Of a DNA stretch of 64,000 nt, positions 3,310 through 60,918 are shown one piece after another. Positions within the stretch are counted from its first letter, which is position 1; every line of letters starts with the position of its first letter. The notes below the pieces were generated by a model that worked only from the letters and a program-made list of their open reading frames with translations, did no database searches and was not told the DNA's origin. The stretch comes from a virus, in IMG/VR virus record IMGVR_UViG_3300016657_000126, positions 120,885-184,884 of that record; one strand, given 5' to 3'. Position numbers and translations under genes: made by a program.

Positions 3310-5445
3310 TCAGCGATTTCCCGCGCGCTTGAGCAATTCGCCCATGCGGTGGATCTGGTTGGTATCCAGAGACTGGCCAGTCTTCGCGGCCTGGTCATTG
3401 AACGCGAGCAGCTGCTGGAGTTCGCTGTTCTCCTCGGGGCTCAACGGAGCGCCAGTCGCGCCGGGAGCGATGGTGGCGTTCTGCTGGATGGGCGGCTGCT
3501 GTTGGGGCGCCTGCTGCACAGCGGGCTGGATGGTCTGCTGCTGGGCGCCCTGAGCTACCGCGGCGTAGCCGGGCATCGCGGTGATGGCGCTCCACGGGAG
3601 GCTGTTGTCGCTGGGGGCGAACACCGCCGCGGGGTTAGTGCGCGCGAAGTTAACCGCATCGGCGATGGTCATGGGCGTTTGCATGACCGCCCCGTTGACC
3701 GCGGCGTAGATCATCACCGCGGGCGGCTGCTGCACGGGCGGCTGCTGCACGGGCGGCTGCTGCACGGGCGGCTGGTAGGCCTGCTGGACCGGCGCCTGTT
3801 GGATGGGGGCCTGCTGCGCGGGGGCGCCGAAGCCAGCGGGAGCGCCGCCACCGAAGCCCGCGGGAGCTCCGCCACCGAAACCGGCAGGAGCACCGGCAGG
3901 AGCACCGAAGCCAGCGGGAGCACCGGCAGGAGCACCGCCGAAGCCGCCAGCGGGAGCGCCGCCACCGAAGCCCGCGGGAGCACCGGCAGGAGCACCGAAG
4001 CCAGCGGGAGCACCGGCAGGAGCACCGCCGAAGCCAGCAGGCGCGCCAGCGGGAGCGCCGCCGAAGCCGCCCGCGGGAGCTCCGCCACCGAAACCGGCAG
4101 GGGCACCGCCGCCGAAGCCAGCGGGAGCACCGGCAGGAGCACCGAAGCCAGCGGGAGCACCGCCACCGAAGCCCGCGGGAGCTCCGCCACCGAAACCGGC
4201 AGGGGCACCGCCGCCGAAGCCAGCAGGCGCGCCAGCGGGAGCGCCGCCGAAGCCGCCAGCGGGAGCGCCGCCACCGAAGCCCGCGGGAGCTCCGCCACCG
4301 AAGCCAGCGGGAGCGCCGGTGGGGGCACCACCGAAGCCGCCAGCGGGCGCACCGCCGAAGCCACCGACAGGAGCGGCGCCCGCGGGGGCACCAAAACCGG
4401 CGGGAGTGTTGCCAAAGCCGCCCGCGGCAGCGCCGACAGCGGCACCAGGAATAGCGCCAGGCGCGCCGGTCATGCCGGTGCCTCCGCGCACATTGGCGCG
4501 GTGGCCGCAGGCGATGTGGATCAGCTCAAGCGGAAAGGCGCCGTCGCCGACCAACATGTCGACGATTTCCTGATACGACGGGATGCGCCAGATATCGAGC
4601 GAGCCGAGGTCGTAGCGATTGGCAAGCGCCTCCGGACCGACGGGAAACACGCGCTCGGTGCCGAGACAATTCTCGCGCTCGGTGAAGTGGAAGCCGAGGT
4701 AGGGAAATCCTCCGCTGTTGGGCGCGGGCGGAACGATTTTGATGCAGGTGAGCAAGCCGGTGTTCGGGTGCGTCACGTCGCCGAGCAGGAACTGTTGGAA
4801 GTTCGGGTCGCGCGGCTGCTGACCGTAGGAGGTGGGCCAGCTGAGCGTCTCCTTCAGCGCACCGAGCGACTGCGCCGAAGTCACCAACAGACCCTGCGTG
4901 AGTTGACCCTTGATTTGGGCGACTGCGTTCATCGCCGCCTTGACCTTGGGACGGCCGGGAAGCGGAACGATCTCCTTACCCGGACGGCGGGGATCCGCCT
5001 GCTTTTTGGTGAGACCGGCGAAGCGCGCATCGAGGCGAGCGGTGCGGGCGAGGTCCATGACCGGGCAAGGAGCCTGATCGGCGGTGATGCCGGCGAGGGT
5101 GAGCTGCTTGGGCGAGGTGAAGCTCATGCCGGAACGGCCGAGCCACTGATAGACGTAGCCGAGCACGAACCAGGAGGTAAAGGCCGGCGTGCCACCTTTG
5201 ACCTCGTTGTCCACGCGCCCGCTGTGCATGTCGCGGTAGGGGGCGAACGAGGTTTTGCGCGCCGCGTCGTGCGGGCTCATGTTGTCGTCCAGCGCCGGAA
5301 GGATGCGCGCCCACATGGGCTCCTTCTCGGTGGGGAAGATGGCGCGAACACCATCCTTGAAATACCGACCGGACGAATCGAATTCGTCGTCGACGACAGC
5401 AGCGGAACCAGCGGCAATGCGGTTGTTATTGGGAGCAGTAGACAT
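3310..5445 (-). CDS. putative ssDNA-binding/recombination protein with FG/G-A-P repeat tail, Q-rich segments and GYF_2-like module
   Basis: Globular N-terminal ~320 aa (WARILPA, CPV, as in gp32-like SSBs), located between pol and recA. About 22 GFG repeats follow. SSB role is inferred. Confidence 0.55.
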   Translation of the reverse strand: MSTAPNNNRIAAGSAAVVDDEFDSSGRYFKDGVRAIFPTEKEPMWARILPALDDNMSPHDAARKTSFAPYRDMHSGRVDNEVKGGTPAFTSWFVLGYVYQWLGRSGMSFTSPKQLTLAGITADQAPCPVMDLARTARLDARFAGLTKKQADPRRPGKEIVPLPGRPKVKAAMNAVAQIKGQLTQGLLVTSAQSLGALKETLSWPTSYGQQPRDPNFQQFLLGDVTHPNTGLLTCIKIVPPAPNSGGFPYLGFHFTERENCLGTERVFPVGPEALANRYDLGSLDIWRIPSYQEIVDMLVGDGAFPLELIHIACGHRANVRGGTGMTGAPGAIPGAAVGAAAGGFGNTPAGFGAPAGAAPVGGFGGAPAGGFGGAPTGAPAGFGGGAPAGFGGGAPAGGFGGAPAGAPAGFGGGAPAGFGGGAPAGFGGGAPAGFGAPAGAPAGFGGGAPAGFGGGAPAGGFGGAPAGAPAGFGGAPAGAPAGFGAPAGAPAGFGGGAPAGGFGGAPAGAPAGFGAPAGAPAGFGGGAPAGFGGGAPAGFGAPAQQAPIQQAPVQQAYQPPVQQPPVQQPPVQQPPAVMIYAAVNGAVMQTPMTIADAVNFARTNPAAVFAPSDNSLPWSAITAMPGYAAVAQGAQQQTIQPAVQQAPQQQPPIQQNATIAPGATGAPLSPEENSELQQLLAFNDQAAKTGQSLDTNQIHRMGELLKRAGNR
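3822..4425. repeat. coding tandem repeats (GFGG(G)APA / GAPA)
   Basis: Recurrent units such as ccgaagccagcgggagc and caccggcaggag, all multiples of 3 nt. Confidence 0.9.
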
Positions 5446-5462
5446 GATGAGAAATTAAGATT

Positions 5463-5687
5463 TTAAGTGGGATTCTGACTTTTGCGTTCGGACAAAACCT
5501 GGCGCGCTTTTGTTAGGTTGGCGCGACCGGCCGTGATTTTTGCCTGCGAGCGAGAACGCCCGCCTTTGGCTCCGCTGAGACTCAGGAAATTGCGAGTTTC
5601 TTGGGACAGCTTTGGACCTGCCGACTTTTTCCCTGAACGAGAACGGTCGGCGGCGCTCTCGCGTTTACGGGTTTGAAGTTTAGCCAC
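5463..5687 (-). CDS. small basic, probably DNA-binding protein
   Basis: 74 aa, K/R-rich, motif SGAKGGRSRSQAKITAGRAN; GTG start. Confidence 0.55.
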   Translation of the reverse strand: MAKLQTRKRESAADRSRSGKKSAGPKLSQETRNFLSLSGAKGGRSRSQAKITAGRANLTKARQVLSERKSQNPT

Positions 5688-5700
5688 GCTGACGAGTTCA

Positions 5701-5731
5701 ACAAGCCGCTTGTTATAGTCAAGCGGCTTGT
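5701..5731. promoter_or_regulatory. perfect 12-bp inverted repeat overlapping the polymerase stop, containing TTGACT on -
   Basis: ACAAGCCGCTTG-ttatagt-CAAGCGGCTTGT. Confidence 0.5.
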
Positions 5732-8700
5732 CGGAATTCTTCCTTCAACCAGACCGGATCGTTCGCCCAAGTCGGGTCGTCGAGCAGCTTGAGCTGGTCC
5801 TTCGATGGGCGCGACGACCAGGCGAGATTGAACTCGCCGGACGCCGGATAGAACCAGACGCGCCCATGGTCGAACCACGTGTTCTTCTCCGTCATGTAGA
5901 TCTCGTGCAGCCTAGAGACAAGGAAGCGCTCCTCCACCGGGCAGATGGACACACACGAGTCGTAGAGGATGGTCATCAGCCTGGCGTGCATACCGCGCCG
6001 ACGATACTCGTCCACGAGGTTGATGCCGGCGCGCGCTGAAGTCGCAGCTACGGACTCTTGGCACGGGAAGTTGCGCGCCACGCGTCCCATCGCCGACAGC
6101 TGGGCGCGGCGATCGCGCCCGCTGATGGAACCACCGAGCATACCGTAACCGGCGAAGTGGCGCCGGCGACCAGACTGCGCGACGAGGAAACCCGGATGCT
6201 CAGGCGCGCGCTGCAGATCCTCTTCCAGCCATCGAGTAGCCACCGGCTCGCGCTTTGCGATCGCGCCGAGGATCTTCGAGCCGGTGCCCTCCGGCGGCTT
6301 GAATCCGGCGTCGGACTCGATCTTGCGCTCAAGGGTGGAGTCTACCGCGCCATAGGCGGTGTTGGAGACCAGCACGCCGTTCGCGGTGAAGCGATGCCGC
6401 GGACCGGCGTTCACCAGATCGTAGACCGGCTCCAACGTGAGCTCGAACCCACGGGCACGGAGCTCCGCGATCAGGACATCGCGGGGACGACCTCGGTAGC
6501 CGTTGACGCCGAGTATCGCCGCAGGATTTCCTCCAGCGGCGTTCCCTTGTCGAACAACGCCCTTGCATGCGACGCCGAGCACTGGATTTCCGGGTGGGTG
6601 GCCATGAACTCGCGAACTATTTTGGAGACGTTCGGGCGCGATGCCTTGGTCCTCGCGATTTCGGCGATTTCCGCCGCAGTCTTTCCCTGCTTCAGGAGCT
6701 TGACCAGATAGTTGAACGAGAGAGCCGAGTGCGCAGCGTGCAGACGCCTGGCCTCCGCGTAAGTGTTCTCGGCTTCCGGATTCGCCGACGACTTCTTCCA
6801 CTGAGCCAGGATTTGAGCTTCGGTCCAGCCCCTCCAGACAAGCTTGCGCACCTGAGCCCGAGCGAACCCCACCTCCGGATGCGCCGCCAAGAATGCGTCC
6901 GCCTTCGCGAAATCCGAATTCGCCCGTAGCTGCTCCTTGGTGCGATACTCCCCGGCATTCCACTTCTCCACCAGCTGCTCCTCCGTCAGACCGGAGAAGA
7001 GCAGATTGCGGACTGTCCTGAACGCCAGCTTCACCTCCGGATGCGCCGCAACGAACGCTCGCGTCTTCGCTCCAAATGATCGGATCGAAAGACGCGTGTT
7101 CTCGAGATTGGTCCGACGGTCCACCAGGCGAAGATTGTCCGGCGAGTAAGGGCCGTCGTTGTCGATCCGATCGAAATCCTTCCCCTTGAAGGTCTCGCCC
7201 GGCCACTTGCTGAGCGCCCACGAGATGAAGTGCTCCTTGTCCTGAAACAGCACCTGGATTCCCCGCCCCTTGTAGTTGTAGGAGCTGGCGTGCGTCCACG
7301 TGTTGCAACGCTGCTTCATGGACTGAAACCGCGTGCGAAGCCGATAGCGAATTTCGTCCTTCTTCGGCGCCTGACACGCACAACGAATGCCTTTGCCAGA
7401 TTCCAGATGGTGTAGCCATTTCTGACGCACCACCTCGCAGCGCGGGCAAAATGTCTGCACCGCCAGATTGCCTTTGCTGTTTCGAAACAGCGCCGGCCTC
7501 AGTTGCAAACCCTGCAAGCCGAGCTTGGCCAGCCTCGCTGCCAGTTCGGGCGAGATCGAGACCTGCCAAAGCAGCTTCTCCGAAGAAGACCTCTCTTCCG
7601 TCCATAAGCCAGACACCGTGGTCGACGGTGGCACGGAGTCCTTGGTATTCGATGATGTGCTGTTCACCTTTGCAGATAAGCCCTTCGTGGCGGACCCAGT
7701 CAACTCCGTCCCACAAAAGATCGAAATCTTTAGATACTTCCTTGATTTTCTTTACACCATTGTTTGTTAATACTCCCACATCAGCCGGCAAGCAACTGAA
7801 GTTTCCCACCTTTCCAATGCCGTCGCGGTCCTTCTTCTTGTTGAGATACTCGCGGGGCTTTTCCTGCACCCATTCCGCCAGCGACCAGTGAAGGTCGTGC
7901 TTGGGGTGGCGCAGCTTTCCGTCTTTGCGCAAGAGCTCGTGTTCCTCGACTTTGCGGATCACCTTGCCCTCCTTCATGAGGTGCATGATGGCCTGCGGGT
8001 TTCGATTACCCTCGGGGATGCCGCAGTCAGCGTCGTAACGCAGGCGAACCGGCATCGTCTCCGTCCCTTCCTTAACGAGACCAAACTGAGTGTCCGGCTC
8101 GGTCATGAGCCGGATCAGATTCTCGTCGCCGCTCATGAACGCCTTACCGCGGATCTCGGCCGTGTCATAGTCATACTCGACGATGCACCAGCCCTTCGAT
8201 CCGGGCACTGGAGGAAGGCTGCTGATGTCGACGCACCCGCGGATGGACGGGATGTTCTTACCCACCTTCTCCACGCGGTCGTCGAGTTTCGGATACTGCA
8301 TCGCGCCGACCAGATATTTCTCGAACTTCTCGGGCAGACGGTTGGCTTCCTTCAGTTCGAGCAGCAGCTTTCCGACGCCCTCCGATATGCGCTTGTTGAC
8401 GTAGCTCGGCCAGTTAAGCGTATTCGGTTTCCAGCTACGAGGACGCCCGGTGTCGGTCGTGCTATACTGACAGTGCACGCGTTGATCGCTGCACAGCCAG
8501 AAGTGAAGACCGTTCTCCTTGGTCACCTCGCCTGTCTCTTCGTCGATTTCGGGCTCCTTCAGGAACGCCTTGCTCAGGTTACCGACGGCATTGAGGTTCA
8601 GCAGCTCTCCGATCGTCTCGTGCTTGTCCGCGAGAATCTGCAGCGTCTGCTTGTCGGTGGACGGCGTGAACTCCTTCTGCCTAGCCGGGGTCATGGCCAT

Positions 8701-10452
8701 GACCTTCTCCCACGAAGTTGTCGGCAGGCCCTTCTCTTTGTTGTTGGTCGATTTCACCGGAGTGAGGCCGATCACGTCAAAGAGCCAGCGCCGCATCATC
8801 GGAGCGCTTCGGATGTTGAACCCCGGTGCCTCGCGCATGTGGTGGAAGAACGCCAGCGCCTGGTCCTTCTTTTCAGGCCCGACCAGGTCCAGCAACTTCC
8901 GCTCGGCCTCACCGTGCTTCAGCGCCTCAGGGCTGGTCAGCAGCTGGAGACACTCCAGACCGACGGTGAGCCCACGCATGCCGAACGCCCCCTGCAGGAA
9001 GCGGAGAAACAGCGTGCGCGCCTCGTTCGCCACCCGCTGCTTAAATCGGATGTTCAGCTCCTGCGTGGCGAACGTAAACAGATCACGCAGCTCGTCCATG
9101 CGCTGCACGTTCATCGGAAGTCCGACGATCGCGAAGTTGGTGAACACGTCGCTCACGAACGGGAGGAACGTGTTCATGAAGTAGGCCGCGGTGCCTTCGG
9201 CGACCATCCTGCGCAGCAAATACGGCCATGCGCGGTAAGGCGTCAGCACGTCGTAGCAGCCGTAGGGCTCAATCAGTTTGTCGGGCACGTAACCGAAGCC
9301 GTCGTCCTCGCTCTGGCGGTTAGCCTTATACCAGAGCATCAGCTCGATGTCGTAGCGACCAAACGGCGTGTAGCGGATAGACAACTCTTCCAAACCGCCG
9401 CCGACGTCTTCGTCGACTACCTGCTGACCGAACTCAGTGTCGAACTCCGTGCGTTGATACCACTCCAGATCCAGGAATTTATCCATCCACGGGTAGTCCG
9501 CGGAGATGTGATGACCTAGATAGCGCGTCTGCTTTTTATTCAACACGCGGCCGAGAATTTGTCCGCAAGTCTTGTAAGGCGCGTTCATCACATACTCCGC
9601 GCGCTCATTCATGAACTGAAAGAAGAACGCGCGCGTCGGTGTAGGCGCGGCTTGGAAACTCCTCAGAAGACCATCCACGTGACTGCGGCCTTTCCACTCA
9701 CAGTCCACGGAGAACAGGCTGTATTTCTTTTCCTCCCACTCACGCACAACATTCTCCATCTGCTCCGTGTTGCGCACGAAGGTCATCTCGGAGGGAATCA
9801 CGTCAACGACCACGCCGTTGATTTGATCCCACATCCGTTTCACCTGCTTCATGTCCACATTGAAGCGCTCGATATACTCCGGCTTGAACACCGGCAGCAT
9901 GATGTCGGGCATCAGGTAGACGCGCGCGTTGACTAGCGCCGAGTGAAACCAACCACCCTGCAAATCGCTGATCGACCCCTTCACATCCACCAACACATCG
10001 AACGCCGGCTTTCCAAGGCAGACGATGATCTTCGGCTGGACGCGCTTTATCTCGGCGAGCAACGCCGGGGTTGCCATAGCGATGGCGTCGCGGTCGGGCT
10101 TCTTGCGCTCTTCCTTTGGGAGGAGCCACTTCACCAGGGCCGTGAAGTAGCAGTCGTCCATGTCGATCGCCGCGTTGCGCGCGCAGTCGGTGAGAATGAC
10201 GCCAGACCCACTCTTCAGATAGCGCGGCTTGTCCTCGATGGAAGCTCCGGTGAACGTGCGCTCCCGGTCCATCGCCTCGTCCTCCTGCAGCGACGTCTGG
10301 ATGAACATCACGTCGCTCGGCGTCTTTCCCGCCCCGGCGACAAACAAGACGTCCGACCAGCGGCGCGTGGTCTTTACGTCATGCGGATGTTCCGTGGGTC
10401 TCGGTGTAGCCAAAGCCACCCGAGGTTTGAATGAGCGGCGTTCTTCAAACAT
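5719..10452 (-). CDS. polA: family A DNA polymerase with N-terminal uracil-DNA-glycosylase-like domain (SPO1-type), 3'-5' exonuclease and an intein
   Basis: UDG-like YFTALVKW..EIKRVQPKIIVCLG; exonuclease SVDCEW/HHISAD/YGCYD; TDTGRPRSWKPN; motif A DYDTAEIR; motif B KVGNFS|TAYG split by intein; NFPCQ; motif C LYDS. Confidence 0.93.
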   Translation of the reverse strand: MFEERRSFKPRVALATPRPTEHPHDVKTTRRWSDVLFVAGAGKTPSDVMFIQTSLQEDEAMDRERTFTGASIEDKPRYLKSGSGVILTDCARNAAIDMDDCYFTALVKWLLPKEERKKPDRDAIAMATPALLAEIKRVQPKIIVCLGKPAFDVLVDVKGSISDLQGGWFHSALVNARVYLMPDIMLPVFKPEYIERFNVDMKQVKRMWDQINGVVVDVIPSEMTFVRNTEQMENVVREWEEKKYSLFSVDCEWKGRSHVDGLLRSFQAAPTPTRAFFFQFMNERAEYVMNAPYKTCGQILGRVLNKKQTRYLGHHISADYPWMDKFLDLEWYQRTEFDTEFGQQVVDEDVGGGLEELSIRYTPFGRYDIELMLWYKANRQSEDDGFGYVPDKLIEPYGCYDVLTPYRAWPYLLRRMVAEGTAAYFMNTFLPFVSDVFTNFAIVGLPMNVQRMDELRDLFTFATQELNIRFKQRVANEARTLFLRFLQGAFGMRGLTVGLECLQLLTSPEALKHGEAERKLLDLVGPEKKDQALAFFHHMREAPGFNIRSAPMMRRWLFDVIGLTPVKSTNNKEKGLPTTSWEKVMAMTPARQKEFTPSTDKQTLQILADKHETIGELLNLNAVGNLSKAFLKEPEIDEETGEVTKENGLHFWLCSDQRVHCQYSTTDTGRPRSWKPNTLNWPSYVNKRISEGVGKLLLELKEANRLPEKFEKYLVGAMQYPKLDDRVEKVGKNIPSIRGCVDISSLPPVPGSKGWCIVEYDYDTAEIRGKAFMSGDENLIRLMTEPDTQFGLVKEGTETMPVRLRYDADCGIPEGNRNPQAIMHLMKEGKVIRKVEEHELLRKDGKLRHPKHDLHWSLAEWVQEKPREYLNKKKDRDGIGKVGNFSCLPADVGVLTNNGVKKIKEVSKDFDLLWDGVDWVRHEGLICKGEQHIIEYQGLRATVDHGVWLMDGREVFFGEAALAGLDLARTGSEAGQARLAGFATEAGAVSKQQRQSGGADILPALRGGASEMATPSGIWQRHSLCVSGAEEGRNSLSASHAVSVHEAALQHVDARQLLQLQGAGNPGAVSGQGALHLVGAQQVAGRDLQGEGFRSDRQRRPLLAGQSSPGGPSDQSREHASFDPIIWSEDASVRCGASGGEAGVQDSPQSALLRSDGGAAGGEVECRGVSHQGAATGEFGFREGGRILGGASGGGVRSGSGAQACLEGLDRSSNPGSVEEVVGESGSREHLRGGQASARCALGSLVQLSGQAPEAGKDCGGNRRNREDQGIAPERLQNSSRVHGHPPGNPVLGVACKGVVRQGNAAGGNPAAILGVNGYRGRPRDVLIAELRARGFELTLEPVYDLVNAGPRHRFTANGVLVSNTAYGAVDSTLERKIESDAGFKPPEGTGSKILGAIAKREPVATRWLEEDLQRAPEHPGFLVAQSGRRRHFAGYGMLGGSISGRDRRAQLSAMGRVARNFPCQESVAATSARAGINLVDEYRRRGMHARLMTILYDSCVSICPVEERFLVSRLHEIYMTEKNTWFDHGRVWFYPASGEFNLAWSSRPSKDQLKLLDDPTWANDPVWLKEEFRQAA
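6361..7794 (-). mobile_element. intein (478 aa) in polymerase motif B
   Basis: Starts CLPADVGVLT, block B ATVDHGV, ends VYDLVNAGPRHRFTANGVLVSN followed by Thr(+1). Removal restores KVGNFSTAYG. Confidence 0.92.
6471..7703 (-). CDS. HNH homing endonuclease nested out-of-frame inside the intein
   Basis: CPRC..CAC, MKQRC, YKGRGI, DRIDNDGPYSPDNLRLV...N, then four HTH-like repeats (AHPE..G.T.E). +1 frame relative to polA; start codon uncertain (TTG). Confidence 0.85.
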   Translation of the reverse strand: MTGSATKGLSAKVNSTSSNTKDSVPPSTTVSGLWTEERSSSEKLLWQVSISPELAARLAKLGLQGLQLRPALFRNSKGNLAVQTFCPRCEVVRQKWLHHLESGKGIRCACQAPKKDEIRYRLRTRFQSMKQRCNTWTHASSYNYKGRGIQVLFQDKEHFISWALSKWPGETFKGKDFDRIDNDGPYSPDNLRLVDRRTNLENTRLSIRSFGAKTRAFVAAHPEVKLAFRTVRNLLFSGLTEEQLVEKWNAGEYRTKEQLRANSDFAKADAFLAAHPEVGFARAQVRKLVWRGWTEAQILAQWKKSSANPEAENTYAEARRLHAAHSALSFNYLVKLLKQGKTAAEIAEIARTKASRPNVSKIVREFMATHPEIQCSASHARALFDKGTPLEEILRRYSASTATEVVPAMS

Positions 10453-10670: not shown

Positions 10671-11897
10671 TTATTGGATACCGAGGGCAAGATAACGAAG
10701 ATAGGCGATCTCGTTTTTGTCGCACTCGCCCAAGTCCTTTCGATGGGCGGGAGGACGCAGAGAGCGTGTTGCGATGAAGGTGACTGTCTGGCGGAAGTAG
10801 TCTTCGGCGTCGGCACCGCCGGCGTCGTTGTCCATGATCGATACGGCTTCTTGAGCACCCGCCGCTATCAGGCGCGCCTGCTCCGGGCTGACGAACTTAC
10901 CAGTGGCGCCGACCGCCGGCGGTCCGAATTTGGCGGCGTCTAGCGGACCTTCGGTGAGGACAATGCGCCGCACCCAACCAGGGTGACGCGCCGCCATCAT
11001 GTCGTTCCAGCGGAGCGCGGCGTCGTAGCAGAACAGCACTTCGTTGCGCGACATGGCGTCGGCCGAGCGATAGCGGGTTATCCGCTTCCAATCATCTCCA
11101 TAGTCGGGGCGGATTACTTTCGTTTTGTCGGGCCCGGCGTATTCGACAGGCACCCATTCGTGGCGGTAAGGATGCAGGAAGTAGGTGTAGCCCTGGTGCG
11201 CCTGTTGGAGAATACGCGCCTGCCATCCGATGCAGCTACCATGCTGACGCCCGAAAAGAATGAGGCGATTCTGAGGCGTGTCTTTCCATCCATCGGGTCC
11301 CTTGCGGTAGTAGCGCTTCAGCGTGCCCTCGGGTAGTTCGACGTGGCAAAACGAGGCCTCGAGCATGTCGTGCAGGACCGCCAGATCGTAGCCACGATCG
11401 ACAACATACCGGACAGCCGGATGGTCGGCGGGGAGGTCCTTCAAGAAGGTGCACTGTCCGGGCTCGCCGGGAACGCGGCGACCGAGGTGATCGGTGACCA
11501 GCTTCAGCTCGTTGTCGACGGCCGTCACCGACACGACGGACTGCGCGTCCGGAATGCCGCGGCTCTGAATCGGTGGGTAATCCAGGATATCGAGCATCGA
11601 GATCTTTTTACCCGACTTCATACACATGGCGCAGTCGTCGTTATCGTAACTTCCGAGGCGCCCCTCCCACTTGCCGGTGCCGAAATACTTGTCCAAGTTC
11701 ACAGCCCCGTGCATGGAGATGAGTTCCTTGCGCCCGTCCAGCTGCAGACGAAGCGGACTCGGGAAGTAGGCGTGGAGACCGCCAGTTTCCTGGCGTATGC
11801 TCACAGGTCCGTGAATGCGTGAAAGCGCTTCAACGAAACGCAACACCTTTGGGTCGAGCGCAGAGACGCCGGATCCGTATTTGATCGAGACGCTCAT
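10671..11897 (-). CDS. dnaG: DnaG-type (TOPRIM) DNA primase
   Basis: YVVDRG, NRLILF, IGWQARI, LTEGPLDA, MDNDAGG, KDLGE. Confidence 0.88.
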   Translation of the reverse strand: MSVSIKYGSGVSALDPKVLRFVEALSRIHGPVSIRQETGGLHAYFPSPLRLQLDGRKELISMHGAVNLDKYFGTGKWEGRLGSYDNDDCAMCMKSGKKISMLDILDYPPIQSRGIPDAQSVVSVTAVDNELKLVTDHLGRRVPGEPGQCTFLKDLPADHPAVRYVVDRGYDLAVLHDMLEASFCHVELPEGTLKRYYRKGPDGWKDTPQNRLILFGRQHGSCIGWQARILQQAHQGYTYFLHPYRHEWVPVEYAGPDKTKVIRPDYGDDWKRITRYRSADAMSRNEVLFCYDAALRWNDMMAARHPGWVRRIVLTEGPLDAAKFGPPAVGATGKFVSPEQARLIAAGAQEAVSIMDNDAGGADAEDYFRQTVTFIATRSLRPPAHRKDLGECDKNEIAYLRYLALGIQ

Positions 11898-13633
11898 AGA
11901 TCGAGGATGGCGAAGTTTTTGATGGCGAGAGAATGAATTTCAGAGGCCAGATCGTCGTCCGGCATCGGGAGGTCCAGTTGACGTTTGTGCGGCAGGCAGA
12001 GCAGCAGGCGAATCTCGCGCTCGACGCGCGCCGGCTGGAAGTCGGACGGCTCCGGAATCGGGCCGTGAAGGCGCAGCTGGTTGATCGACACGCGGCGGGC
12101 CAACGCGGCCTCGTGCTCAAGCATGGAGTCGAACTCCGCCCGAATTTCGAGCAGGGTGCTCTTCACGCCGGCGACGAGAGACTGGATCGTGAGACCTCCG
12201 GTCAATGTCCAGAAAAGCTGAGGCGAGATCTGACGACCCAACAGGATCAGTGCGCGCCAGAGGTAGGAGTTGCGAAACACCTCGTCGTGGTAGGTGGACG
12301 CATTCGAGGAGAGGAAGCGCGTCACCGCGGCAAGATCCGTCATACCGAGCTCCCAGCCAGGAGCCGAGTGTTGAATCGAAGAACCGAGCCCGACGATCGT
12401 CTGGGTCAGAGACCAGGCGTTAACCGTATTCATTTCCTCGTTACGGAATATGAAAGCGGGCGCGGGGAATGACGCGCGGTCGACGGACGGAGCGAACAGC
12501 CCTTGGCAGAACAGGTCCTCGAAGGACGCGGAGAGACCGGCCATGTATTCCTGCTTCGGACGGTAGTTCACAGCGGTCCACGCATCGATGGCGGCGGATG
12601 ATGCGCGGCCGAAGGCTTCACGCCCGGCGAAAGTCTCCTCCGTCAAAGGGAACTCTTCACGGGAAGCCAGCGCCACGAGCAGCTGAGCCAGGGGGAGGTC
12701 GAGCTGGCGATCGGCAATCAGGCCGCGGATGCGGCGAGCGGTCAGCGACTGCCAAGACTCCACCGGACCAAGCCGGGTAGCGAGGACTTCCACGATCGCG
12801 GGCGCCGAGGGGTGACACGCCAGCAACCGACCAACGCGACTCCCTTTCGCCACGGAACCGGGGAGAGTCGCATTTTCCGAGGGCCGGGAGGGCTCGGATT
12901 CCGATGCTGTGTTCTGGTCCCCTTTCGCCTGCGAAAGGGTAAGGGTTAGATGATTGGGTTCGGAAGAACCCAATCCAATACGGTTGGCGTTTTCGCCTAC
13001 CCCGGTAGTCAAAAAATTAGCGGGAGTTGCGAGCTTCGATTCGGTGCGTTTGACCTGTGGGAGAAGGTCACGCGCGCTGAAGTAGGCCTCGAGATCCAAC
13101 CAGAACCCGGCGGCGTCGAGATCAGTGTCGACCGGAGCGCTCATTCCAACCCCCATCAGGAAACGCGCTGCCTCATTCGCGCTGGAGGCGTAGAGCATGT
13201 CCTGCACGCACAGGAACAGCCAGAGGCGTTCGGCGAGCTCGGTGAGATCGAATTCCTCCTTCGAGAACCAGGGAAGGACTTGCCCGCGGGCGTCATCGAG
13301 CGCCGCGGCGAAACCAACCGAGAACTTTGGTCCGTGCGTGAGCAGCCAGCGCGCCGAACCTTTGTTCGCCTGGCGCTTGAGCCCGTGTTCAGCATGCAGC
13401 GCCATAACCGCTCCGCAGCGGATCAGACTGCGCACGTGGCGGGAGGCTGTGCCGGCCGTGACCAGAGCGCCCTCTGCCAGCCTCGCGTTACTGAGCGTCG
13501 TCTTGCCGTGAATGTCGGCGAGATGATTGATCTGCGCGTAGACCGGGAAGAACGTCTTTCGCATGCCCGGAAACGACTTAACGTAATTCGAAAAACGCCC
13601 GGCGCGGGGCGCACGGAAGAAGATCCGAGCCAT
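11894..13633 (-). CDS. putative replication initiator (N-terminal winged HTH)
   Basis: LSNARLAEGALVTAGTASRHVRSLIRCGAV HTH; S/P-rich central linker; sits between DnaB and primase. Function inferred. Confidence 0.5.
   Translation of the reverse strand: MARIFFRAPRAGRFSNYVKSFPGMRKTFFPVYAQINHLADIHGKTTLSNARLAEGALVTAGTASRHVRSLIRCGAVMALHAEHGLKRQANKGSARWLLTHGPKFSVGFAAALDDARGQVLPWFSKEEFDLTELAERLWLFLCVQDMLYASSANEAARFLMGVGMSAPVDTDLDAAGFWLDLEAYFSARDLLPQVKRTESKLATPANFLTTGVGENANRIGLGSSEPNHLTLTLSQAKGDQNTASESEPSRPSENATLPGSVAKGSRVGRLLACHPSAPAIVEVLATRLGPVESWQSLTARRIRGLIADRQLDLPLAQLLVALASREEFPLTEETFAGREAFGRASSAAIDAWTAVNYRPKQEYMAGLSASFEDLFCQGLFAPSVDRASFPAPAFIFRNEEMNTVNAWSLTQTIVGLGSSIQHSAPGWELGMTDLAAVTRFLSSNASTYHDEVFRNSYLWRALILLGRQISPQLFWTLTGGLTIQSLVAGVKSTLLEIRAEFDSMLEHEAALARRVSINQLRLHGPIPEPSDFQPARVEREIRLLLCLPHKRQLDLPMPDDDLASEIHSLAIKNFAILDL
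12842..12998. repeat. cluster of inverted and direct repeats in the linker of the initiator-like gene (candidate origin)
   Basis: CCCTTTCGC-ct-GCGAAAGGG (12920-12939); GATTGGGTTC-ggaa-GAACCCAATC (12952-12975); TTTCGCC at 12845, 12923 and 12991. Confidence 0.4.
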
Positions 13634-13720
13634 GAGAATTCCTTGAAGGGTTTAAGTGGGTGAGCACCTTGAGGGTGCTCGGGGAAGAACCAACAAGCCC
13701 CTGTGGGGAGACTTGGTCAA
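13634..13720 (-). promoter_or_regulatory. promoter/leader of initiator-like gene with hairpin, RBS and predicted sRNA target
   Basis: TTGACC at 13720-13715; hairpin GAGCACC-ctcaa-GGTGCTC; CCCACTTAAACCCTTCAAGGAATT (includes AAGGA) just before the ATG. Confidence 0.55.
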
Positions 13721-60840: not shown

Positions 60841-60918
60841 AATGAACAGCCGCCCACCGGAGAGGTAGTGGTTGCTCAGAGATATATGACACAAAACACC
60901 CCGCCGTTGCAGGGCACG

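Follow-up and report, generated by a model that had tools for sequence, protein, structure and literature searches.

Replication Module and Its Setting

The question raised by this locus is whether a short non-coding gap in a phage replication module encodes an RNA that pairs with the leader of an initiator-like gene about 5 kb away. The window (the whole stretch of DNA that was analysed, 64,000 nt) is part of a phage genome of 196,897 nt, which is listed as complete and gave no integrase or ParA-family match. The replication module lies on the minus strand and starts with a metallophosphoesterase (sbcD-like) gene, followed by genes for an SMC/sbcC-like ATPase, a 158-aa protein, an intein-bearing SF2 helicase and a 235-aa protein. 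It continues with a DnaB-like helicase, a 579-aa gene, a primase-like gene, polA, a 711-aa gene and a recA-like gene, and this gene order is the same in related phages. The polA gene (5719-10452, minus strand) encodes an N-terminal UDG-like domain and a long intein-like insertion, and a frame overlapping it at 6471-7703 resembles a homing endonuclease. In one relative, the RAMP-adjacent ORF and the helicase gene have a tRNA-like sequence between them (L006:7780-7860).

Leader of the Initiator-Like Gene

The putative target lies in the leader of the 579-aa gene, whose product contains a winged helix close to the HTH_36 and DnaD_N clusters and has a syntenic homolog in L007 (28% identity). The winged helix and the position of the gene together point to an initiator role. 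The following features were located, all on the minus strand:

11894-13633, minus strand: initiator-like 579-aa protein with an N-terminal winged helix (HTH_36/DnaD_N-like), flanked by the DnaB-like helicase and primase-like genes
13637-13660, minus strand: target sequence in the leader of the initiator-like gene, -27 to -4, mostly unpaired, between the 5' hairpin and the ATG
13662-13680, minus strand: 7-bp hairpin, probably at the 5' end of the initiator mRNA, 1 nt before the target
13715-13720, minus strand: TTGACC, putative -35-like box of the initiator gene, with no clear -10 box

The minus-strand 24-mer from 13660 to 13637 stops 3 nt short of the ATG at 13633. In the window and five relatives (six loci), TTGAC boxes were found 34-38 nt before the probably leaderless RAMP gene starts, and this clade spacing suggests that the initiator mRNA starts at about 13686-13682. 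The predicted order along the mRNA is the 7-bp 5' hairpin, the 24-nt target and CUC-AUG. With the box at 13720 and the clade spacing, the target would thus make up almost the entire open 5' UTR. An AAGGA within the target stands at a Shine-Dalgarno-like distance from the ATG and had been taken by the first-pass annotation for the ribosome-binding site that the RNA covers. Shine-Dalgarno motifs were not enriched among the leaders of this genome (AGGA in 12 of 228, against about 9 expected), so AAGGA may not be a ribosome-binding site. The coverage itself held, since the stretch from -27 to -4 falls within the ribosome footprint whether or not AAGGA serves that role.

The leader also contains a short open frame that ends at 13652 like a 74-aa ORF elsewhere in the module (Pro-Thr-stop). 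A 10-nt inverted match to the bases preceding the initiator ATG (13634-13643) occurs at 18675-18684, in the -10 region of the RAMP gene; it has a palindromic core and may be due to chance.

An Interrupted Antisense Match

Three plus-strand blocks, 18740-18750, 18761-18769 and 18777-18782, tile the leader 24-mer in order with 1-nt overlaps, so that a minus-strand transcript of this region would be antisense to the leader. This had been claimed from a first reading of the DNA, and all of the coordinates proved correct. Once an 8-nt and an 11-nt stretch are taken out, the minus strand from 18782 to 18740 is the exact antisense of initiator positions -27 to -4, and the two removed stretches are complementary to each other. 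The 11-mer and 9-mer blocks were each found at these two places alone in the 196,897-nt genome.

When the region was tiled in three blocks against both genome strands, the best site was this one at 24 nt and the next reached 19. A comparison of all intergenic regions with the 228 leaders again placed the initiator match first at 24, followed by one of 22. None of 26 dinucleotide shuffles reached 24 in the genome-wide control (maxima 19-23), which corresponds to a modest genome-wide P of about 0.03-0.1. Among 3,995 shuffles of the sbcC-RAMP gap alone, 2 reached 24. When only the 36 nt upstream of a constant 3' arm were shuffled, the complete 24-nt match (an extra 13 nt) recurred in 5 of 20,000 trials, so a copy of a shared motif alone does not explain blocks 2 and 3, although both have palindromic cores and therefore carry less information. 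Similar matches, which the first-pass annotation had proposed to look for in shuffled and genomic controls, were thus not common, by a modest margin.

The copy in the gap is inverted relative to local transcription, whereas the genome's other long intergenic-leader matches are same-sense repeats. An apparent second antisense match near 60,870 was rejected as one of these, a same-sense promoter-like repeat. This repeat of about 39 nt ends in GTCATATATCTCTG, follows terminators and occurs at about 60,860-60,900 and in a gene leader 2.4 kb before the window; it is probably a phage promoter class. The copy at 60.9 kb precedes a long multi-hairpin non-coding stretch.

A Candidate Small RNA Gene

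The gap between the sbcC-like and RAMP genes contains the elements below, in the order in which they are discussed:

18705-18783, minus strand: candidate small RNA of about 78 nt, predicted, with a 43-nt targeting region and a terminator (z about -5.7)
18814-18819, minus strand: TTGACG, putative -35-like box of the small RNA, predicted start 18785-18781
18792-18814, minus strand: terminator-like hairpin directly after the sbcC stop codon, with a U-tract to 18788
18777-18782, minus strand: 5' arm of the RNA, identical to block 3, complementary in sequence to 13642-13637
18755-18775, minus strand: internal hairpin around block 2 (18769-18761), with a 6-bp GC-rich stem, 9 bp when folded computationally
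18740-18754, minus strand: 3' arm, consisting of block 1 plus AAGA, 14/15 pairs with each of two leaders
18705-18739, minus strand: perfect 11-bp hairpin with U-tract, resembling an intrinsic terminator, with inner arms that are conserved in L002, the closest relative

Counted from the TTGACG box, the clade spacing of 34-38 nt places the predicted start of the RNA at the first base of block 3. The -10 element is weak (CACTTT, 18795-18790). At the other end, block 1 ends at 18740, where the terminator-like hairpin begins; the complementarity therefore runs exactly from the predicted RNA start to the base of the terminator. The hairpin after the sbcC stop codon would shield the small RNA from read-through, and it is more stable on the minus strand than on the plus strand (-13.3 vs. 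-5.6 kcal/mol), as is the internal hairpin (-14.6 vs. -8.7 kcal/mol). In both hairpins the minus-strand advantage comes from G-U pairs. Collectively, the layout suggests a discrete minus-strand RNA gene of about 78 nt in the sbcC-RAMP gap, although the RNA may alternatively originate as a processed sbcC 3' end. No Rfam match was obtained for it. CCCACTTAAAC was also weighed as a plus-strand promoter and discarded, as it has no -35 element at normal spacing and the hairpins disfavour the plus strand.

The middle block had been described as exactly the loop of the internal hairpin. This description fits a stem of 6 bp; ViennaRNA adds three further pairs, which leave only GAA fully open.

Predicted Pairing and a Second Putative Target

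A second leader in the same module matches the 3' arm:

5452-5471, minus strand: second target, in the leader of the conserved 711-aa gene (3310-5445), which polA and the recA-like gene flank

The 3' 15 nt of the RNA form 14 of 15 possible pairs both with the initiator leader and with 5471-5457, with the mismatch at a different place in each. Both targets are antisense matches on the mRNA strand that begin 26-27 nt before the ATG. The second target overlaps the stop codon of the 74-aa ORF, a basic reading frame at 5463-5687 on the minus strand that starts immediately downstream of a TTGACT box and closes with Pro-Thr-stop on the target motif; this target is thus also under coding constraint.

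Co-folding of the RNA with all 228 leaders ranked the initiator leader first (-13.5) and that of the gene at 5445 second (-8.8), although the co-folding energy does not discriminate as a significance test, as unstructured windows and the opposite strands of other leaders score better. The absolute binding energy was ordinary: owing to the self-pairing of the real RNA, 47 of 64 shuffled RNAs equalled or surpassed it in binding to their best leader. In the predicted initiator duplex, the internal hairpin stays closed, both arms pair beside it and three target bases remain unpaired. This three-way junction gains 15.2 kcal/mol, compared with 4.4 kcal/mol for a three-block duplex with the stem melted. 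Since the target has no unpaired bases between the blocks, the geometry implies that the loop and both arms cannot pair together on a closed stem. The loop match would then be either an optional first contact or a trace of the origin of the RNA as an inverted copy of the leader.

Relatives and Database Searches

The closest relative (L002 for the gap and L044 for the leader, one phage by gene content) shares 54% identity for the RAMP and DnaB proteins. Its 94-nt gap has retained the terminator hairpin's inner arms along with the -35 box of the RAMP gene and lacks the targeting region, and no colinear antisense match was found between this gap and its initiator leader. A 7-nt and a 6-nt piece within L002:248-295 are antisense to the 5' arm of the leader hairpin at L044:4343-4356, in non-colinear order, probably by chance. 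In L044 the initiator leader forms a fold of its own that extends to 5 nt from the ATG, and the L007 leader has a 16-bp inverted repeat whose end lies 9 nt from the initiator start codon. These cis stems (L044:4340-4385 and L007:14993-15075, with ends 5-9 nt before the start codon) would mask the leaders, which is consistent with a clade-wide restraint of initiator translation. In five more distant phage records, three of them complete, pairing of this kind to module leaders was not found. To judge from the relatives compared, the small RNA would be lineage-specific.

Three soil sequencing runs contained fragments of closer strains, many 90-99% alike and some spanning the initiator leader. No RNA data set was listed among the sequencing runs that carry the phage, which is neutral as to transcription. 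Protein searches of viral, metagenome and genome collections recovered distant loci only, and DNA-pattern scans of viral contigs returned chance matches without module genes. The sbcC-RAMP gap had no match in cultured phage records, and the RAMP protein no credible match in cultured phage records, PHROGs or PDB sequences.

The Neighbouring RAMP Protein

The gene directly downstream of the candidate RNA encodes the 158-aa protein of the module:

18195-18671, minus strand: 158-aa Cas7/Csm3-fold (RAMP) protein, a core gene of the replication module, adjacent to the candidate RNA
18679-18706, minus strand: sigma70-like promoter of the RAMP gene (-35 TTGACC, 16 nt, -10 GAGAAT, 7 nt to the ATG)

The predicted fold is confident (pLDDT 95), and the protein matches type VII Cas7 and Csm3 (E about 2e-6). 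The protein belongs to a large viral family whose profile matches once in the genome. Its gene is fixed between sbcC and the helicase gene in a conserved module (sbcD-sbcC-RAMP-SF2 helicase-DnaB-initiator-primase-polA), and its mRNA is probably leaderless, with the same promoter layout in relatives. Although they lie within an operon, the RAMP genes of L007, L014, L023, L026, L028 and L041 are usually preceded by a sigma70-like promoter of their own with leaderless-type spacing. The gap upstream of the RAMP gene was 47 nt or less in 12 of 14 related loci (in three of these, the RAMP or the upstream gene was identified by position only). Adjacency is the sole link between the RAMP protein and the small RNA.

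Like VIPR proteins, the protein has a RAMP fold with an RRM core, a thumb and a G-loop. Neither a YNNGG run nor a 5-nt period was found at the locus or beside the RAMP genes of relatives, and no self target read with 1-nt skips was found here, the best skip-rule match in the genome (16/20) lying elsewhere. VIPR membership of the RAMP-RNA locus was consequently rejected, as pentamer repeats are missing and the target is contiguous and belongs to the phage itself. Class 1 CRISPR-Cas was likewise set aside on gene content; the neighbours are sbcC/sbcD-like, SF2 helicase and DnaB-like genes. A second RAMP protein (235 aa) is encoded at L224:1603-2310 on the minus strand, about 92-93 kb before the start of the window. 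It is accompanied by an HNH gene, and a GC-rich repeat array with two identical leaders lies near L224:400-1060. This is a probable VIPR system separate from the RAMP protein of the replication module, to which its Vipr-like protein is related by a weak C-terminal profile match (hhalign probability 26.7). A loose scan of this array gave no convincing spelling of the leaders or of the gap (12-13 of 16 at best).

Proposed Mechanism and Rival Explanations

It is about an even call that the phage uses a small RNA in trans to repress translation of the initiator-like gene, with a weaker effect on the gene at 5445. Earlier, translational block and R-loop formation had been offered side by side as ways of controlling replication. 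The translational block is the better supported of the two, on the strength of the promoter-like start, the terminator, the minus-strand G-U pairs and the two targets equidistant from their start codons. The R-loop or RAMP-guided mechanism found no support, as 12 of the 14 related loci have no room for such an RNA and the VIPR code, with its 5-nt GGY/NN period, is missing.

In the translational model, the 157-nt sbcC-RAMP gap would contain a stand-alone gene for the minus-strand small RNA, driven by a sigma70-type promoter that overlaps the sbcC terminator and ended by its own terminator. The RNA would act in trans through RNA-RNA pairing. A partly open AAGU(GGG) beside the terminator may make the first pairs with CCCACUU of the target leader, after which strand exchange would open the weak outer stem of the RNA and allow the 3' arm to form its 14 of 15 pairs. 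On the initiator mRNA, the 5' arm could contribute six more across the closed internal hairpin. Such a duplex would cover nearly all of the unpaired 5' UTR (-27 to -4) and block 30S loading, with the effect that less initiator and, via coupled downstream genes, less primase and polymerase would be made. The same 3' arm would repress the gene at 5445 more weakly. The sequence match with its statistics, the strand bias of the hairpins and the synteny are shown directly. From sequence we infer transcription, the RNA ends, pairing in vivo, repression and the function of the initiator; gene context suggests that the small RNA would control replication. No Sm/LSM-family gene was found in the phage by a profile search, the profile of which also misses bacterial Hfq in controls. 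The case is built on one genome and on prediction.

A rather unlikely alternative is that no RNA pairing takes place, and that an inverted leader copy, or a copy of a CCCACTT ... AATT motif common to leaders of replication genes, was absorbed into the terminator hairpins as a relic or shared DNA motif, which may be a protein-binding site or have no role. Consistent with this, CCCACTT occurs 26-31 nt before four genes, the 15-mer core is present three times (13/15 identical), the phage carries long repeated promoter-like motifs, the 3' arm can pair in cis with an upstream CCACT in a read-through transcript, and relatives lack the small RNA element. Blocks 2 and 3, however, exceed what the motif by itself yields in the fixed-arm shuffles. 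The two "insertions" pair into a stem that includes minus-strand G-U pairs, and the second leader also matches the linker AAGA, neither of which would be expected of a decaying relic. The spacing of CCCACTT and AATT (8, 13, 14 and 32 nt) is unlike that of a DNA site, and in one of the four genes the motif is a mere terminator end. Very unlikely, in our view, is a purely accidental match of a terminator-rich, AT-rich gap to AT-rich leaders. Loose three-block searches do reach 22-23 nt when genomes are shuffled and 22 nt in unshuffled related genomes, and the RNA is not conserved, but chance would also have to produce complementary gaps, a match from start to terminator and the two best leaders in one module.

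Two further explanations concern how the blocks would be presented. The RAMP protein of the replication operon could act as a matchmaker or guide-presenter that binds the RNA (e.g., at GGU/GGC triplets), melts the stem and presents all three blocks, so that a hairpin-interrupted RNA silences the phage's own replication genes at the mRNA or, as VIPR does, at dsDNA in the initiator promoter region. We regard this as quite improbable. The fold is confident, the gene lies directly downstream and three-block pairing requires a melted stem, which a protein could provide; against it stand the short upstream gaps of the relatives, the missing 5-nt periodicity and 1-nt-skip self target, and a 14-nt GGU-N8-GGC unit that matches the step of neither Vipr (5 nt) nor Cas7 (6 nt). 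Furthermore, no self-targeting by vrRNAs was seen in 10.64898/2026.04.26.720920, the genome holds a separate Vipr-like gene with its own array and only weak similarity to the RAMP family, and both targets lie on the mRNA strand at translation starts, which DNA targeting would not need. If true, this explanation would mean that the Cas7/Vipr fold serves here in self-regulation, without an array and by a new code of block-wise pairing, with the RNA of relatives elsewhere or of different sequence. The candidate RNA offers a concrete potential ligand for a widespread viral Cas7-fold family. Within the small-RNA model itself, kissing-loop nucleation had been expected, and an obligatory kissing loop, with the hairpin loop as first contact as in CopA/CopT or ColE1 RNA I, is an improbable variant, less likely than arm-first pairing. 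Kissing is possible in that the loop 9-mer is perfectly complementary to the target (duplex -13.0 kcal/mol in isolation) and contains a low-information YUNR-like motif. It is not needed: the best duplex leaves the loop out, only 3-5 loop bases are predicted to be open, the target is not a hairpin loop and the second target has no loop match. In pMV158 RNAII, binding is driven by a single-stranded tail and not by the loop (PMC4485353).

Comparison with Known Systems

Antisense control of a replication initiator is known in plasmids, where the RNA is encoded opposite its target; R1 CopA and its relatives are plasmid antisense RNAs that repress translation of the replication initiator. RNAII of pMV158 has a single-stranded segment beside a terminator hairpin and blocks the translation-initiation region of the initiator (PMC4485353). 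The candidate resembles both in its single-stranded segment beside a terminator and its target at the translation start of an initiator. However, pMV158 RNAII and CopA are cis-encoded and perfectly complementary, whereas the candidate has 8- and 11-nt interruptions and two targets and sits in a 197-kb phage without integrase or ParA matches. Being encoded 5.1 kb from its target, it falls outside the cis-encoded plasmid class.

The C4 RNA of P1/P7, of about 77 nt, pairs in trans via non-contiguous segments, one of which occludes a ribosome-binding region (PMC5320573). The candidate is similar in length (about 78 nt), in its separate segments, in a putative target mRNA reached in trans and in the translation-start region concerned. 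It differs in having one internal hairpin instead of three stem-loops, with the arms predicted to do most of the pairing, in targeting replication-module genes instead of an antirepressor operon, and in showing no indication of RNase P processing. The Rfam C4 model did not match the candidate up to E=1, and the sub-threshold matches were to terminators only. The candidate thus resembles P1 c4 RNA and pMV158 RNAII in its proposed action and belongs to neither family. In its limited complementarity to distant translation-initiation regions, which exceeds chance with moderate significance, it conforms to trans-encoded sRNAs. Among phage sRNAs, lambda PreS/LPR1 enhances translation of host dnaN (10.1101/2024.10.31.621285); the candidate would similarly tune translation initiation of DNA-replication genes, with the difference that its putative targets are the phage's own genes and its putative effect is repression.

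VIPR RNAs consist of 9-16 pentamer repeats read with 1-nt skips, with no self targets found (10.64898/2026.04.26.720920). The likeness lies in a small phage RAMP protein encoded beside a short non-coding RNA with non-contiguous complementarity (10.64898/2026.04.26.720920; 10.64898/2026.04.26.720927). The candidate, in contrast, has no GGY/NN repeats, has gaps in the RNA only and a contiguous target, uses blocks of 6-11 nt instead of 2 and targets the phage itself, and its RAMP gene is a fixed replication-operon gene that usually lacks an adjacent RNA. If the small-RNA model is true, antisense control of initiators would extend to large, apparently non-integrating phages, through a trans-encoded RNA that reads two leaders of its own replication module around a closed hairpin, and the locus would be a clear example of how a small RNA can arise by inverted duplication of the sequence that it targets.
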